64,000 bases of DNA from NCBI GenBank assembly GCA_947178095.1, contig CAMWWZ010000001.1, positions 34,145-98,144 of the forward strand, written 5' to 3'. The translations under genes were made by a program, and so were the position numbers. Numbering within the stretch: position 1 is the first letter of the stretch; the number at the start of each line of letters is the position of its first letter. This stretch comes from an uncultured Treponema sp. (GTDB taxonomy: Bacteria; Spirochaetota; Spirochaetia; Treponematales; Treponemataceae). The notes beneath the pieces were generated by a model. The model had not been told where the DNA came from. It saw nothing but the letters and a program-made list of their open reading frames with translations, and did not search any database. Shown here in pieces: positions 33,897 to 43,729 of the stretch.

Positions 33897-34643
33897 ATGA
33901 AAGCCACGAACTTAATGGAACAATTTGTAAAAGAACAAGTCGATGACATGTACGCTCGAATTAAGGAAGAAAATCCGTCCTCGCCAATTTGCGACTGCGA
34001 AAACTGCCGCCTTGACGTTCTTTGCTACGTGCTCAACAGAGTTCCTCCGAAATACACAGTCTCGTCCAGAGGCGTTAGCCACACGCAGCGCGAACTGGAA
34101 AATTTCAAGCAGATTTCCGCCGACGTGGGAAAAATCGTGATGGACGGAATTCGCCTGATAAGTTCTTCAAAGCGTCCGAACCACAATTCATCCTACGCGA
34201 CTTCTATTGAAAAACTCAAGATCATAAAACAGCGGCCGTTCTTTTTGTTCCCGATTTTGTCCGGCTACGTATATGACGGGCTAACGTTCGAATCCCTCGT
34301 GGACGCGCAAATCTCGCTTTTCATCGACGGAAAATTGGCGAAAATGCTCGACTCGACGTGGCAGAATCCGTGCAAGACTTTCAAGGCCACAGAAGGCGCG
34401 TACAATTTTTGCGTGCTTCCAAGGAAGGCGATGAAGGCGAATTTGACGCGCGATTTCAACATTCTTCTGAAAGTCGAGGCCGAGGGCTACGAAAGCGTGA
34501 ACTATTCGTTTACCGTGCCGATTTCAAGCATAATCGCGAAAGATTCCAGCGGATTTGCGAACTATTCGCTTAAAATTCAGGATTTGTTTCTCTTTCCTAA
34601 AGGCGCGGAAAACACGATGGAAAGGTACATTGCCGAAGAATAG
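33897..34643 (+). CDS. Late competence development ComFB-family protein
   Basis: N.ME..V...; CDCENCRLDVLCYVLNRVPPKY. Confidence 0.85.
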   Translation: MKATNLMEQFVKEQVDDMYARIKEENPSSPICDCENCRLDVLCYVLNRVPPKYTVSSRGVSHTQRELENFKQISADVGKIVMDGIRLISSSKRPNHNSSYATSIEKLKIIKQRPFFLFPILSGYVYDGLTFESLVDAQISLFIDGKLAKMLDSTWQNPCKTFKATEGAYNFCVLPRKAMKANLTRDFNILLKVEAEGYESVNYSFTVPISSIIAKDSSGFANYSLKIQDLFLFPKGAENTMERYIAEE

Positions 34644-34712
34644 CGGTAAACGGGAGTCGAACCCGCCTGTCGGGCTTGGGAAGCCCGCATACTACCGATG
34701 TATTATTACCGC
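34642..34712 (-). tRNA. tRNA-Gly(CCC)
   Basis: Cloverleaf: acceptor GCGGTAA/TTACCGC, anticodon arm CGGGC-TTCCCAA-GCCCG, TTCGA loop; no encoded CCA. Confidence 0.92.
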
Positions 34713-34716
34713 GGAA

Positions 34717-34790
<74 letters not shown>

Positions 34791-34800
34791 AACTTTTCGA

Positions 34801-34829
34801 ATTATAGCATTTTTCTCGATTTTGTGCAA
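34801..34829 (-). promoter_or_regulatory. Promoter of tRNA-Arg/tRNA-Gly
   Basis: TTGCAC-17 bp-TATAAT on the minus strand. Confidence 0.65.
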
Positions 34830-35035
34830 GCGGAATGTCAAAAATCCACGCCAAAAAAGCGCGCGGATTTTTATGAATTTCGGGAAAATTCAATGCGCGT
34901 TCGCGCAAGCAAAAAAAATAAATTTTTCGGCAGTCTCCGCGTTTTTGCGTTAATTCGTTTCAAAAAATTCATACTTACATTACAGGACAAAAAAGTCATT
35001 TCAAAACGAAGTGATGTTCTTCAAGGAGGTGTTTT

Positions 35036-38000
35036 TTGAAAGAATTCTTTCAACGCTGCGCGGCATTCTTGATGCTGGCAGTCTATTCTTTGTCAATCGC
35101 CAACGCCGCGCAAATCGCGCAAGATTTTCAGGCGCAAAGAAAAACGCTTGACGCATATCTTGAGCGCGCGCTGGTGCAAGGCGACAGGGAAAAATTCGAA
35201 AAAATCGCCGCGCTGGGAATTGGCGCCGCCATCGCCGAATGGGAGCAAGATTCCATGGAAAAGAAAATCGAAGGCTACGACGAGTGGATTTCGCAAAGGA
35301 ACGCCCTTTCGGAAGACTTGGAATCCTACAAGGACGAAAGTCTTGCGAAATGGATTTTGAAAAAGCAAAACGAGGAGCGGGAGGAAATCCAACGAAACGC
35401 GCTCTACAACGTCCTCCATGAAGCCGCCCTCGCCTTCGCTTACACAAAATCCGACGGAAGCACAACTCGTATAGTTTCCAAAGATTTCATCGACGAAGCG
35501 AAGGCGCAATGGAGCGAAATTTCCATGGCAATCGTGCAAGAATACATCGAAGCATGGAACGGCGAAAACATGTCCGCCGACGAGCGCGAACTTTTCGGAC
35601 TGAAAATTTCTGAGGCGGAAAAAGCCGCGCTCGTTTTGGAAGCGAAAGAAAGTTCGATAACATTTTTGCAAGGCGAATACATTTCGATTGAAACCGCTAT
35701 CACAAATTCGCTAGTGAGCGCGCTTTTGTACGACCAAGATTCGCTCAAAAAACTCAGCGACAGCGAAGCCGCCTCGACCATCGCGCGAAAGCTCTCCGAA
35801 AGCATCGAGTCGCAGACTTCCGAATCCATGGCGCATCTTTTCAACGAAATGGAAACGGAATTGGAAGTCGCGAGCGCGGATTCCTTGAGCGGCGCGAAGG
35901 AGCAAGAATGGCTCGGAAAATTCGAGCGCGAGCTTGCGGCAGGGCTCGAAAAATGGAACGAAGCCGAGCGCAGTTTTTTGGCGGCTCGCGTGGAGTGGGA
36001 GCAAAATTCGGAGAACATTTTCATAAACGACAATAAAAAATGGACGGAGGCTTACAATGAACTTGGCAAAAGAAAATCGGATTGGGCGGCAAAAATCGAA
36101 AATCAAATTCAGGAAGGAACGAAGAAATGGGAAGAAAAGCATTCCCTTCTTCAAGACCAAATCAGAAACTATTTCGAAGAATTCCAAAGCAAGCTCGCTA
36201 TTGAAATCCAGCAGAAAAGAGAAATCGTCAGCGCGGGAATTGAAACGTACAACCAATGCCGCGAAATTCTCGCCATGGCAAAAAGCGGCATTTCAAACAG
36301 TTATGCCAAGTGGTGCGAAAAATACAACGGCCTTTATTCGTATTGGAAAACAGAGGACTCTTCTTGCGACGCGGACAATTCGGACATAAAATCGATCGCC
36401 GGAAAAATATCCGAATGGAAAAACATTTTCATAAAAACCGCGCTTGACATAATCGAACGATATTTGAATCACGCGAAATCCAGCGCAGAAGAAATCGACG
36501 AAAGCGAAATAGAAGAACTTTACAAAGAAATTTCAAGCCTTTCGGAAAAATCAAGTTTCGACGAAATTTCCAAAATCGCAAAAAAAGTCGCGCAGCAAAA
36601 AAATAAAATTCAATCCCAACTCAACGACTCGCAAGAAGAAATCAACAAGGAAATTTGGCAAGTTTTCGAAGGCTGCGCATCGCTTTCAAAAGACTACGAA
36701 GAAATTTCTGCGTGGCTCGAACTTTTCGAACAATACGAAAAAGAAGTCAGCGCATCGCTTTCGCAGATTTACGAAAATGCCGGCGGCGGAATAGCGCAAA
36801 GCGGCTTCGATGAAATCGAAAACGAAATGGCGAAACTTTCCGCATTGGAATCGTATTGGGAAAGCCGCGAAAAAATCGCGCTCGGCGTTTACGAATATTC
36901 CAAGGACTACACAAGCGGAATCGAAAGCGCCGACACGACCGCAAAAAATTTGGAAGAAGCCCTCAAAAAATACGAAGAGAAAAAAGCGGAATACCAAAGA
37001 ATGCTCGGCGCGCTTTCCGAATTGCAGGCGGAAGTAAAAGAGGCGCAAAACAAATACGATTCCGCGGCGGAAGACGCGTCGAGCGCGCTCGAACACATAG
37101 AAGAGCAACGCCAAATCTACGATGAGTTGTACGAACGCTACAAAGCGACAAGCGATTCCAAGGCATTCGGCGAAATTTCCGCATTGAACGAAAAGCTTCA
37201 AAAAATCGAGCTTTGCGGCGCGGAATACGAAAAACTTCTTTTGTCGTATTATTTTGAAATTCAAGACGAAGACAAAAAAAGTTTCGAAGCAGAAATAGAA
37301 AATATAAAAAAGAATTTCCAAGACGGAAAGGAAGAAACAGTCACTGAAAGCATGATTGATCTAAAACAGAATGACATATTGGGCGAACTTGAAGGCGAAG
37401 CCTTCGACTTGTCAGAATATGTCGGACTTTCCGTGAAGATTTTTTCCACTTCCGAAATAGAAAATTTTTCCATCACGCTCAAAGCCATAGTCGAAAGCGA
37501 CGAAATTGATGTCGCCGCCCTCGAAGCGATTCTTCCCGACTTGGAAAAATTCGACGGCAAAAACGTGAACCCGTTGAAAGTCGAAATCGAAAATTATCAC
37601 AATCTCAACAATGAAATTGAAATTGCCGGCGAAAACGAAATTGAAATCGAAAATGCGGATGAAAACGAAGAAGCGGATTTTTCAGAAAGAAAAACGCAAA
37701 TCCTTGAAAACATCCGCGCGCATATCATGGCAATCAAAAAAACTTGTCAGGACGAAATCGCATTCCGGAACGCCGTATTGCTTTTGCTAGAATCGGAGAA
37801 CGCGGAAGAGATAGAAGAAATATTCGCGAAAAATCCCGAACTTGAAGAACGGTGCGAGCCATATAAAAAATGGTCTTTCGCACTAAAAACCAAAACGCAG
37901 CGCAAAGCAAGAAAGGCCGTAAGCGACATAATTCAAAACGTGCCGCGCGGAAATCTCGAGGAATTTTTCGCAGCCTTGGACGAAGCAGACGCGGAACTCG

Positions 38001-41000
38001 ATTCGGCAGGACTTTGCATTCTCGCGCTTTACAAAAAGGCGATCGCATGCAAAAGCGCGTGCGACACAAACCGCGCGACGCTTGCGAAAAACATAAGCGA
38101 AACTTTCCAAAAAGAATTTTCCATCAATGAATACGATTTTCACGAAAAGATTTTTGAAAGTTTTTTCGATGAAAAAGATTTGCGTTGCGAAAAAATTTCC
38201 AATCCCGACTACTCGCTTTTAAATACAATGGAAAGCAGCAAATCGCACATCGAAAAAATGGAAAGATTCTACTTGGATTCGTTCGACATGCAAAAAACGA
38301 TTTCCGAATTGCAAGTCGCAATGGAAAATCAAAAAAATAAAATCCTGGACGCGCAAAAAGAATACGAACAAAAAATCGAAGCGTTGCGCGGCGAATCCAG
38401 CGGCAGCGCGTTGAATTTGTACATCGCAAAATGCGAAGAATACAACGCCGCGCTCAAGCGCACGCAGGATTTTTATGCGCAGACGGAAGACGCGCGGCGA
38501 GAATATCGCGCCGCCGAGGAAATTTATTTTTACGCGCAAAACGAATATCTCCACAAAAACATCGACGCGGATTTGGAAGAAAACCTTGCGCTCGCGCGGC
38601 AAAAACTTTCCGACGTGCACACGGCGTTGGAAGCACTTTCTGAAATAAAGGCGGAAAGAGATTCTTGCGAAAAGCCGTCCGAATCTTTCCAAGAATTCGA
38701 CGAATACAAAGCAAGCATGCTTCAATATTACAGAGCCAGAGTTTTGTCGTATGAATACAACAAAGAACTTGCCGCGCAAAAGGAACGCCTTCGCCAAGCG
38801 CAACTTGCGGAAAACGACGCGCTCGAATCGCTCGTTTGCGAATACGATGCGAAAAATGAAGCGATTCCATCAATCGTAAAAGATTTTGTGAAAGTCGAAG
38901 AGAGCGTTGATTCCGACGGCAGCACATCGTATTCGTTCAAATTGAATTCAATCGAAAAAATAAGCCAAATGTCGGAAGACGAAATTTCGCAAAACGAAAG
39001 GCTGCTTTCGGATTATTACACGAACACCGTCGCGACGGAAACCGAGCAAGAATGCACGAAGGCAAAGCTCGGCGCGATTGCATTTCTCGAAAGCCTTGAC
39101 GAAAAGCCTTACAGCATCGAAGACCTCGCGCTCGCCCTGCTCTACCTAAAGATGCAAGGCAGCGACGAACAAAAATCGCGCTGGCTTTTTTCAAGCGAAG
39201 ATCCGACAATTTACGAAAACTATCCGATAGGCGACATTCCCGAAAAAGTGCATTCGATGGAAATCTGGAAAAGCTTCAAAAACGGTCGCATGACCGCGTT
39301 GAAAGATGCCTATGAAAAAGTAGTGAACAAAGGCGGCGAGCAAGACATCATAAACTACATACTTTATTCGCAGACCAACATCAACACTTCCCTCGACCTT
39401 TATGAAAGACAGCGCGAAGAATTGACAAAACGCGGATTCGAAAATCTGATAAAAGACGTAGAAAGCCAAGTGGACACTCTTGTCGCAGCCGCAATCATAC
39501 AAATGGTAATAATATCGACGTTCACCGCCATATTTGCAATCCCAATATTCGGGGCGTGGGCAGCCGTTCCACTCGCGGCGGCAACGATAATTTTAGTCTC
39601 GCTTTCGATTGCGGCGGCAAAACTCAGCGACGTAAAAGACGACATAATCGGACTGAAAAAAAGCCGCGAAGAAATTCTCGCCGAGCACAACGAAAAACAA
39701 GAAACGCTGATTTCGGCTTGGCAAAACGCAAGGGAACTGCGGAAAGCAGAAGAAGAGAATCTAAAGATTTTGACGGGAGGACAAAATGATTCCAAAAAAG
39801 AAAAACTCACTTGGGAAGAATTTGACGCGGCATTGAAAAAATTCTGCGCGTCTTCAGAAAGCGCGGATTATTCTTACTACGAGAACATCCACACGGCGGA
39901 AGGAAAAAATTTGCGGGAACTTTTCGACACAATATCGGACGACACGATTCTCACGGTGGACAATGCCATAACGAAAATCGAAAGCGTCCTGAAAAGCGAA
40001 AGCGAGCAAAAATCCGCCGCGCTTGATTCTTATGTACAAGAAAGGCTCAAACAAAAAGAAGAGGAATCCGAAGAATTCAATTCACTTCTCTATGCGGGCG
40101 CGGACGAAAATCCTGATTACAAGAACAAATTGAAATCCGCCGCGAAAAGCGCGTGGGGAAAAGATTCTTTCGATCAGGCAAAATATCGTTCGGATATGAT
40201 TTCGTTTTATTGCGAAGAACTTCTGCAAGATTTGCCCGCGCATTTCGGAGATTCGACCGAAAGCTATTTTCTTGAAATTTTCGAAGCTTTGGAAGAGCCG
40301 TACATTCAACATATATTCGAAGCGGCGAATGCGCAGCTGGAAATAAAGCGCGACTATTTTTCGATTCTCAAAATGAGCATGCAAGAAGAGGAAGCGTCTT
40401 GGCAAGACAAAATGCTTGTAGCAGCGCAAATAGGATTTGAAGAATGGGAAAAGGCCGAAGAGAAAATAAACGCCGCGTACAATTCGTGGCAAAAAGAATG
40501 GCTCGACGAATACGATCGAAAAAATCATGAGTGGGACGAAAACTACACGGCTTTTCTGCTCGACAAGCAAGAGTGGATAAACCAATCCTATTTGCAGGCG
40601 GGCGTCCAAGAATTTCAAGCGAAGGACTATGCAAACATTTCGCAGATGAAACGAGCGACAAAAATGGGAGATTCGATTTCCGAATATGTCGCATTGCTCT
40701 ATGACACGCAAAAATTTTCGCGACTCGAAACTTTCGCGGAAAAGATTCTTTCGTTCGCCGACAACAGCGGCTATGATTTGGGAATATTCGCATTCGACAA
40801 AATCGATTCTTCCGCATTGAAAAATCTGGATGAAATCTATGCAAAGCGCGAAAAAGTCGAAAGCGACATGAAGAACGCCGCCGCGAAATATCAGGCGCAA
40901 ATGCTCGAAGCTCAGGCAAAAGAAAAGCTCGAAGCGCATTTATACGAAATCCAAAATCAAAACGAACAAGTCGAAGACTGGGAACTCGACCTTGTGAGAA

Positions 41001-43729: not shown

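Follow-up and report, generated by a model that had tools for sequence, protein, structure and literature searches.

We analysed a 64,000-nucleotide stretch of DNA from an uncultured Treponema sp. (hereafter, the window) and followed up one gene in it, which encodes a giant protein of 2897 amino acids (aa). This protein probably belongs to a new family of Sec-dependent polymorphic toxins that target the cell envelope, as a member without immunity. At the level of the family, comparative genomics supports the polymorphic toxin assignment well; the function that we propose for the copy in the window is held with moderate confidence. The assignment rests on the family and not on the locus, because the proteins P0001–P0015 of the window's own clade have neither an adjacent immunity gene nor orphan tips, and their C-terminal domain (hereafter, the tip) is fixed. 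The preliminary description of the window had called the architecture polymorphic-toxin-like, and cognate partners, orphan cassettes and tip displacement found in the relatives support this reading for the family.

With a word-based search we obtained 29 homologues (2625–3931 aa); the only names attached to them are Treponema sp. and T. parvum (P0028). A second search of the same kind with aa 2079–2500 added one further protein. Altogether, about 50 giant homologues of 2.4–3.9 thousand aa were collected, and every named one belongs to Treponema. In all of the 29, the body aligns with the window protein from the signal peptide to approximately aa 2400–2500. For a census of the family in genomes, we used a profile of aa 2079–2611 (A2); the genome searches were made within Spirochaetota. 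Within the same taxonomic family, 39 of the 151 genomes contained members (27 of the 101 good genomes, 13 of 24 genera); in a phylum-wide sample, which included other families, it was 20 of 301 genomes (14 of 125 genera). The distribution across Spirochaetota is patchy. The protein had been described as spirochete-specific; this holds in so far as all the named homologues are from Treponema, and the genome searches that bear on it were confined to Spirochaetota. When the whole protein was compared with Pfam, NCBIfam and PHROGs, no significant match was obtained, and only the tip showed a faint trace of Peptidase_C39_2. At E up to 1, the body had no match in Pfam, including the repeats or N-terminal domains of RHS, CdiA (filamentous haemagglutinin), MARTX or LXG proteins, and this agrees with the earlier statement that the body is none of these. 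NCBIfam at E up to 1 likewise gave no family, and the suggested comparison with the large Leptospira proteins of TIGR04388 was thus made with a negative result. The A2 profile did not match PDB sequences. Judging by these comparisons, we are dealing with a family of giant, Sec-exported, mainly alpha-helical proteins, so far from spirochetes alone, which is apparently undescribed and is covered by none of the three databases.

The C-termini of the homologues were tabulated, as had been suggested, and it turned out that the body from aa 1 to approximately 2500 is kept while the tips differ. The tip of the window protein is common to P0002–P0016 and is not shared by P0017–P0030, in which BLAST coverage stops at query aa 2372–2545 and the tails differ. 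A shared body with unrelated C-terminal domains, which distinguishes polymorphic toxins, is therefore present in the family. It had been considered that the homologues might all share one C-terminus and match a structural family such as tape-measure or S-layer proteins; the tips vary, and no tape-measure or S-layer model matches. In an all-against-all comparison, the tips fell into separate groups. The tail of P0024 contains Peptidase_M23 (2e-9), and orphan cassettes of 582 and 412 aa beside P0020 and P0022 carry the same domain (PF01551). The tail of P0029 matches NlpC/P60 at 2.9e-4, just below the gathering score. A second papain-like tip type is common to P0020, G028, G079 and G081, so that the papain-like tips of the family belong to at least two unrelated types. 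By eye we recognised further Cys/His tip types in G088, P0028 and P0030. The C-terminal motif H...S/T-x-x-C-F (CxF) was found in P0019, P0023, P0025–27, G136 and G067; it recalls the L,D-transpeptidase fold.

The arrangement of genes behind the tips also corresponds to that of polymorphic toxins. All 20 of the full or orphan cassettes inspected have a gene behind them at a distance of at most about 180 nt, and most of these genes overlap the cassette or start at most 15 nt from it. For the majority of the partner genes, the product begins with a sequence resembling a signal peptide. Among related tips, the type of the partner covaries with the type of the tip across genera. Thus, four papain tips of the P0020 type (43–75% identical) pair with four homologous proteins of 220–254 aa (37–75% identical) that have SH3_3 at the end; the partners of two M23 tips that are 49% identical are themselves 39% identical; and CxF tips pair with proteins bearing an F5/8-type C (NADase_transloc) domain. 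The downstream signal-peptide proteins are candidate immunity proteins, and their signal peptides would fit periplasmic immunity to envelope-directed enzymes. In G136, which belongs to the same genus, a gene for 2944 aa is followed by a 140-aa signal-peptide gene overlapping its stop codon and then by three truncated copies, each starting inside the core and each with its own tip and a small downstream gene. Orphan tip cassettes also occur in G003, G028, G081, G066, G088, L001 and L003. A case of tip displacement was found in G067 and G088, which have the gene at the same locus and with the same N-terminus: in G088 there is a new tip with a new partner, and the G067-type tip and its partner are kept as a downstream orphan pair. 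Orphan arrays, cognate partners and tip displacement are defining genomic signatures of polymorphic toxin systems (PMC3482391).

Two observations concern these cassettes. In G003 (L020 8069–8400 and 13475–13800; L021 6435–6700), three tandem cassettes of about 1200 aa have a near-identical odd leader, …ACYPTRGGRRVQGLGGQFGA…, after which the family sequence begins, and no full-length giant gene lies nearby. Rather than being coding, this leader may represent a recombination or insertion sequence that is repeated. In tblastn, the F5/8-type C (NADase_transloc) domain of the partner of CxF tips in G136 matched C56:81–428 (36% identity) and C3:11783–12448 (26%) in the window's own genome. They could be orphan immunity-like genes or unrelated discoidin-domain proteins; the genome is without a CxF tip.

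The tip of the window protein had been noted as a catalytic-looking domain, and this is borne out by its structure prediction and conserved residues. The AlphaFold2 (AF2) model, built with 15 aligned homologues, has a mean predicted local distance difference test (pLDDT) value of 90.9 and a predicted template modelling score of 0.88. Cys2712 and His2834 are invariant and Asn/Asp is conserved at position 2856; each of the three columns is at least 90% conserved. In the numbering of the tip, C101 opens helix 101–114, H223 opens strand 223–231 and N245 follows strand 240–244. Judged by the conserved residues and their positions in the predicted secondary structure, the domain has the arrangement of a clan CA papain-fold (C39-like) peptidase. 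According to the model, the tip is a papain-fold Cys-His-Asn domain with an intact predicted triad. Its N-terminal region of approximately 95 aa is additional to this fold and mostly helical. Peptidase_C39_2 (PF13529) scored 10.7 bits with the whole protein and 15.5 bits with the domain alone, below the gathering threshold of 24 bits, and matched one of the 15 aligned tip members. A Foldseek search of PDB gave as the best, non-significant matches (E 0.1–0.2; template modelling score 0.25–0.30) IdeS, the protease domain of T. denticola T-Mac, a cathepsin and the C39 domain of ComA-PEP. Taking PDB and BFVD together, the matches were weak, papain-like or peptidase, with no close solved relative, and the tip profile (A1) did not match PDB sequences. 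A search of 1.84 billion representative proteins with the tip returned 26 clusters, all of which are giant-family proteins or fragments that also carry the upstream family module; other toxin carriers thus do not have the window tip. Among the species representatives this tip type is rare and is clear in the window's genome alone among the 151 sampled. An A1 match in G081 was rejected as a window-type tip: it is of the P0020 type, and a P0020 row is misaligned in A1.

The open reading frame (ORF) is real, intact, single-copy and under purifying selection. The ratio of nonsynonymous to synonymous substitutions (dN/dS) in the body is 0.07–0.25, so the gene is not decaying. The giant protein evolves faster than its neighbours: at a distance at which RpsB and Tsf are 97% identical, its own identity is 71%, and it is 33% where ComFB has 62%. 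When compared with the nearest strain (the P0002 locus), the examined gene body (from 40000) and the downstream flank show 95–100% nucleotide identity, and the segment 42900–43700, which is exactly the tip, shows 79–93%. For the tip, dS is 0.226 against 0.078 in the body, and dN is 0.112 against 0.005–0.016. Gut-metagenome contigs agree, with two sub-segments of the tip too diverged to align. This island of divergence suggests that recombination brought in a diverged allele, that the tip has diversified strongly, or that both happened. The idea of a tip with foreign codon usage or GC content was dropped in favour of this strain comparison, as its GC content of 0.41–0.45 is within the range of the gene body.

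Upstream of the tip, the anatomy given in the preliminary description was largely confirmed. A Sec-type signal peptide had been seen; the sequence is MKEFFQRCAAFLMLAVYSLSIANA followed by AQ, with a hydrophobic stretch at aa 4–28 and a cleavage context of SIANA before AQ in a hydrophobicity scan, and all 30 family members have an equivalent signal-peptide-like N-terminus. The long acidic, Trp-studded stretch of about 1450 residues after it agrees with the composition (aa 25–1470: 18–25 D+E per 100 residues versus 8–16 K+R; 1–5 Trp per 100 in the first 700 aa). This stretch is nearly free of Pro, with none in the first 800 aa, and its composition favours helices, from which the reported coiled coil is presumed. 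In distant homologues, aa 1–700 are 25–46% identical. The hydrophobic hairpin was found as well, as the sole strongly hydrophobic internal segment of the protein, and most homologues have an equivalent 550–700 aa ahead of the core module. The best conserved part of the family is aa 2079–2200, with 43–51% identity as compared to about 33% for the whole protein. The module consists, in order, of a motif region (GSGxMG..DFQWN..YDQ..PTIR), Gly/Ala/Ser-rich amphipathic or hydrophobic helices (the reported Gly/Ala/Ser-rich region; 40% G+A+S at aa 2201–2300) and a beta-hairpin block; across aa 2079–2400 the AF2 model is poor. The segment that follows, taken as a degenerate zincin, did prove to be one in alignment A2: the ASQNA column of the window protein (in LLASQNA) aligns with HEG[ASTMV]H of P0016–20, P0029 and P0030. 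HEGxH is kept in many family members and lost in P0001–15. The zincin part is modelled with pLDDT 75–90 (confident region aa ~2398–2598), and Foldseek gave for it weak local matches to the minimal zincins selecase, jannalysin, abylysin and IrrE; nothing else was found with the core model, most of which is of low confidence. Thus, the fold is weakly zincin-like, the window copy does not have HExxH on the active-site helix, and its zincin is predicted to be catalytically dead. The low-complexity linker is present where it had been reported. No trafficking domain or secretion system (type V, VI or VII, PVC, TcdB) was recognised by Pfam, and the Sec-type signal peptide alone is present.

The window's clade is atypical in the family: it has a fixed papain-fold tip, a dead zincin, no partner gene and no orphans. 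Several facts of this kind weigh against the interpretation as an envelope-directed polymorphic toxin and are gathered here. The tip type is fixed in the clade (P0001–P0016) and is kept down to about 33% identity of the body, unlike tip turnover at the level of strains. The own genome is 94% complete, and tblastn with all tip types found in it a single copy, no paralogue and no orphan tip. At the window no immunity gene follows, the next genes being those for tRNA-Val and coaD, and no small exported partner stands after the gene in six loci with the same tip (the window, L007, L004/5, L034/35, L037 and L044). The best fold matches of the tip include no peptidoglycan amidase; they are proteases of host proteins (IdeS, T-Mac), cathepsin and C39. 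The label "L,D-peptidase-like", which we use for the CxF tips, comes from a motif read by eye that Pfam does not confirm, and it is a lead only. There is no known route of delivery across two outer membranes. Finally, the toxicity of the tip and its neutralisation by the partner are putative for every family member. The earlier statement that no immunity partner is recognisable thus stood for the surroundings of the gene.

The neighbours in these six loci are housekeeping genes (comFB, coaD, rplU, recO), and the five besides the window are those of P0002, P0005, P0009, P0011 and P0014. Two candidates for a partner were rejected. The most distant member with the window tip type, P0016, keeps HEGAH and has a 329-aa gene with a tetratricopeptide repeat (TPR) and a signal peptide 13 nt downstream; this is the sole candidate immunity gene for the tip type, and the window's genome contains no homologue of it. 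A 129-aa ORF after P0004 overlaps coaD and looks spurious; no tRNA lies in that stretch.

As to delivery, it had been stated that no secretion partner is recognisable. This is correct within the window; elsewhere in the genome, however, there is a cluster with a resistance-nodulation-division (RND) pump, a membrane fusion protein (MFP) and an outer membrane factor (OMF), which is operonic with the giant gene in sister clades. The cluster contains a TPR protein, two small proteins, a TolC-like OMF, an MFP adaptor, two Big_5 proteins and two RND pumps. In many relatives it lies directly up- or downstream of the giant gene, sometimes in one operon; in sister clades the giant gene is directly 3' of two RND transporter genes (the gap is 0 nt in L003, and the genes overlap in L041). 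Among the genomes of the taxonomic family, 23 of 25 with the RND gene have the giant family, as compared to 16 of 126 without it (Fisher p = 1e-14, with kinship ignored). From synteny and co-occurrence, the RND/MFP/OMF cluster is a candidate delivery partner.

We propose the following mechanism. Sec export would put both arms of the protein in the periplasm and the hairpin in the inner membrane; alternatively, the hairpin and the Gly/Ala/Ser-rich module may insert into a target membrane. The tip would be presented or released into a periplasm and cleave peptidoglycan or another envelope peptide of the recipient. In the members that bear HExxH, the zincin is likely to be the peptidase that releases the tip, and the signal-peptide partners may serve as periplasmic immunity proteins guarding the producer's own periplasm. 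In the window copy, the tip may act without release. The presence of a conserved triad with no immunity could mean that the target is absent in the producer, that the tip is latent (its first ~95 residues, largely helical, could keep it so) or that the substrate has shifted. The window tip is a sharp island of strain divergence despite having no partner, and therefore this copy is most likely still an effector that is antagonistic or otherwise exposed to conflict, with a target that is absent from, or protected in, the producer.

A broader picture can be suggested only tentatively. Spirochetes may have a class of interbacterial weapons of their own, in which Sec-exported, hairpin-anchored giants carry swappable envelope-cleaving tips, periplasmic immunity proteins accompany them, and a dedicated RND/MFP/TolC-like machine moves them out or acts together with them; the window's clade would then be one without the releasing zincin and self-immunity. 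Delivery would go from periplasm to periplasm, unlike type V or type VI secretion or outer-membrane exchange. The window tip could cleave a structure of the wall or envelope that Treponema itself lacks, and immunity would hence be dispensable.

It is unlikely that the protein is instead a housekeeping envelope enzyme, that is, a periplasmic, membrane-anchored helical scaffold that places a hydrolase on the cell's own peptidoglycan. It would be a supersized analogue of EnvC (LytM), PcsB (CHAP) or CwlO/RipC (NlpC/P60), with a possible role, for instance, in cell division or in creating space for the periplasmic flagella. Its layout matches theirs, with a signal peptide, a long helical region and a C-terminal hydrolase, and M23 and papain/NlpC-like tip chemistries also occur in the EnvC, PcsB, CwlO and RipC class of coiled-coil hydrolases. 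In the window's clade, the gene is single-copy and partnerless, stands among housekeeping genes and has one tip type, and purifying selection on the body (see above for dN/dS) would be expected under this explanation. However, about three quarters of the good genomes of the same taxonomic family lack the giant family, and in other species of the genus no member stands beside coaD. The orphan cassettes, cognate partners and tip displacement in relatives, the divergence island at the tip and the much faster evolution of the protein than of its neighbours also speak against a housekeeping role. No ftsEX was seen beside any inspected locus, although no search was aimed at ftsEX. The family further differs from the FtsEX-governed enzymes in being about 10 times larger, in its internal hairpin and zincin, in swappable tips with partner genes and in its patchy distribution.

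It is also improbable that we are dealing with a secreted or surface protease or adhesin directed against an animal host or other non-bacterial targets. The variation of the tip would then be driven by immune or substrate selection, and so no immunity gene would be needed. In favour of this, the organism is a gut inhabitant, its tip is hypervariable from strain to strain, the locus contains no immunity gene, and the tip comes closest in fold to IdeS and to the T. denticola T-Mac (TDE0362) protease domain, which cleave host immune proteins (PMC11833123). These fold matches, however, are not significant (see above for the E values and scores), the sister tips are cell-wall enzymes with periplasmic partners, and the predicted topology leads to the periplasm unless an export step exists. 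With the clan CA peptidases in general (PF13529, IdeS/Mac-1 of C66, T-Mac PDB 9mdo), the tip has in common a Cys at the N-terminus of a helix and His and Asn/Asp on adjacent strands; unlike them, it is below every family threshold, has the extra N-terminal region of ~95 aa and occurs in the giant family alone.

Tape-measure proteins such as T5 Pb2 likewise unite extended coiled coils with hydrophobic segments and end in an M23 or lysozyme domain. An origin of the window protein as a relic of such a protein or of a conjugation protein that breaches the cell wall, which this resemblance in architecture and the flanking tRNA genes might suggest, is essentially excluded, since there is no PHROG match, tblastn found nothing in 50,697 phage and 72,556 plasmid records, genes of phages, integrases or transfer were missing from all of the more than 15 inspected loci, a Sec signal peptide is found in every member, the GC content is unremarkable and the neighbours at the window are housekeeping genes.

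Returning to the polymorphic toxin interpretation, we compared the family with described systems. Polymorphic toxins are known to be carried by RHS shells, by beta-helical CdiA filaments, by LXG and WXG proteins and by the like. The closest layout is that of the Sec-dependent ("T2SS-type") polymorphic toxins with a releasing peptidase and orphan cassettes in the survey of Zhang, de Souza, Anantharaman, Iyer and Aravind 2012 (PMC3482391). The family is like them in its conserved body with variable C-terminal enzymes and in the metallopeptidase module ahead of the tip, and its relatives have the covarying partner gene directly downstream and the displaced tip/partner cassettes; CdiA-CT/CdiI and Rhs-CT/RhsI loci are the classic layouts for comparison. 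Unlike theirs, the family body falls into no Pfam family and is distinct from RHS/YD, filamentous haemagglutinin, LXG, MuF and TcdB; it is an acidic helical protein of 2,000–3,400 aa with an internal membrane hairpin. Judging by the profiles, the carrier fits into no family of carriers described so far. A further difference is that all the recognisable tips of the family target the envelope and the partners carry signal peptides, and the window copy also differs in having no partner, orphans or HExxH. The survey already lists L,D-peptidase, papain-like and metallopeptidase domains as toxins, and it mentions spirochaetes mostly as holders of immunity genes and of Rhs- or PVC-type toxins (PMC3482391).

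Similar enzymes are used as weapons elsewhere, both as interbacterial effectors that act on peptidoglycan and have periplasmic immunity proteins, and as bacteriolysins. The Tae/Tai amidases belonging to type VI secretion systems (T6SS), the L,D-carboxypeptidase effectors Tlde1/Tae5 (bioRxiv 10.1101/2020.02.18.954545) and the bacteriolysins lysostaphin/zoocin A (M23 and SH3b) resemble the family in papain/NlpC-like, M23 and L,D-peptidase-like chemistry. As in these systems, the putative protectors are cognate and exported to the periplasm, and SH3b-type domains are involved. In contrast to them, there is no T6SS, and the enzyme is not a small free effector but forms the tip of a giant carrier that Sec exports. 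Compared with lysostaphin and zoocin A, SH3_3 is on the putative immunity protein and not on the enzyme.

What is new here is an acidic helical carrier of 2.6–3.9 thousand aa with an internal membrane hairpin, which is present in Treponemataceae and here and there in other spirochetes. All its tips and partner proteins suggest that the conflict is fought out in the periplasm and at the cell wall. The family may give an entry point to competition among gut, rumen and oral treponemes, and it raises the question of how so large a protein leaves a diderm cell after Sec export. It also offers candidate new folds of peptidoglycan or envelope hydrolases together with their inhibitors. The window copy would be such a system after the loss of immunity and of the releasing peptidase, still under selection, and in this respect it bears on the domestication or retargeting of toxins.

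The coordinates of the features are collected in Table 1.

Table 1. Features of the giant gene and its surroundings, and positions of the RND/MFP/OMF cluster (positions are those of the window unless a locus or contig is given).
Feature	Position	Strand	Basis or remark
Giant-protein ORF, 2897 aa	35036–43729	+	open throughout, no internal stop
Shine-Dalgarno sequence AAGGAGG	35023–35029	+	read directly; 6 nt 5' of the TTG start
Sec-type signal peptide, aa 1–24	35036–35107	+	hydrophobicity scan; N-termini conserved across the family
N-terminal acidic, Pro-poor arm, presumably alpha-helical, aa 25–1474	35108–39457	+	composition
Hydrophobic helical hairpin, aa 1475–1533	39458–39634	+	two segments of transmembrane length with PIFGAW between
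Second acidic helical arm, aa 1534–2078	39635–41269	+	composition, homologue alignment
Most conserved family module, aa 2079–2400	41270–42235	+	identity 43–51% (whole protein ~33%)
Minimal zincin-like domain, HExxH lost; HAMLAALLASQNA at aa 2488–2500	42236–42811	+	column alignment, AF2, Foldseek
Low-complexity linker EEEAAAASNAEAEKSTTTT, aa 2593–2611	42812–42868	+	read from sequence
Predicted papain-fold Cys-His-Asn/Asp hydrolase tip, aa 2612–2897 (286 aa)	42869–43726	+	AF2, conserved residues
Codon of Cys2712	43169–43171	+	conserved column
Codon of His2834	43535–43537	+	conserved column
Codon of Asn2856	43601–43603	+	conserved column
Terminator-like hairpin with U-tract	43778–43806	+	folding: dG -22.1, z -7.1
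Bidirectional terminator-like hairpin, A-tract/8-bp stem/U-tract	43833–43862	both	folding: dG -19.6, z -5.3
tRNA-Gly(ccc) and tRNA-Arg(tct)	34642–34791	-	5' side of the giant gene
tRNA-Val(tac)	43862–43935	-	3' side of the giant gene
RND/MFP/OMF cluster, relatives	L001 21990–26464; L003 1–8000; L006 1–7836; L031 10138–13765		
RND/MFP/OMF cluster, own genome	contig C18:9668–22668		outside the window; unrelated genes downstream

The gene has its own ribosome-binding site and stands between tRNA genes, as had been described. Its start codon is TTG; in homologues P0005–7, with the same N-terminus, ATG is found at this place. On the 3' side it is followed by coaD (on the minus strand), a lipoprotein gene, a HEAT-repeat protein gene, maf and rpsB. 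The 200-aa lipoprotein (44539–45141) and the 234-aa HEAT-repeat protein with a signal peptide (45234–45938) lie beyond coaD; they are unlikely partners, because they are conserved with coaD and maf genus-wide, even where the giant gene is missing. Other species of the genus keep this coaD-lipoprotein-HEAT-maf block without the giant gene, which is thus not a core gene. In a metagenome run (X8), a joint of 34785 to 43966 skips the whole giant gene, which could reflect a strain without the gene or an assembly artefact. As an empty site it was not trusted, as there are 21 matching letters on one side, in tRNA sequence.

In every inspected locus of the window's clade, a ComFB-family gene adjoins the giant gene (window 33897–34643; L004 16315–17067; L007 6994–7725; L034 14258–14977; L045 1981–2727). 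Its side and orientation and the wider neighbourhood differ between loci, and either chance synteny or a regulatory link is possible. A terminator downstream of the gene had also been reported. A simple consensus scan gave no terminators; on folding, two strong hairpins with U-tracts were obtained past the stop codon. The second of them lies between the stop of the giant gene and the 3' end of tRNA-Val on the opposite strand, and it is placed to terminate both.

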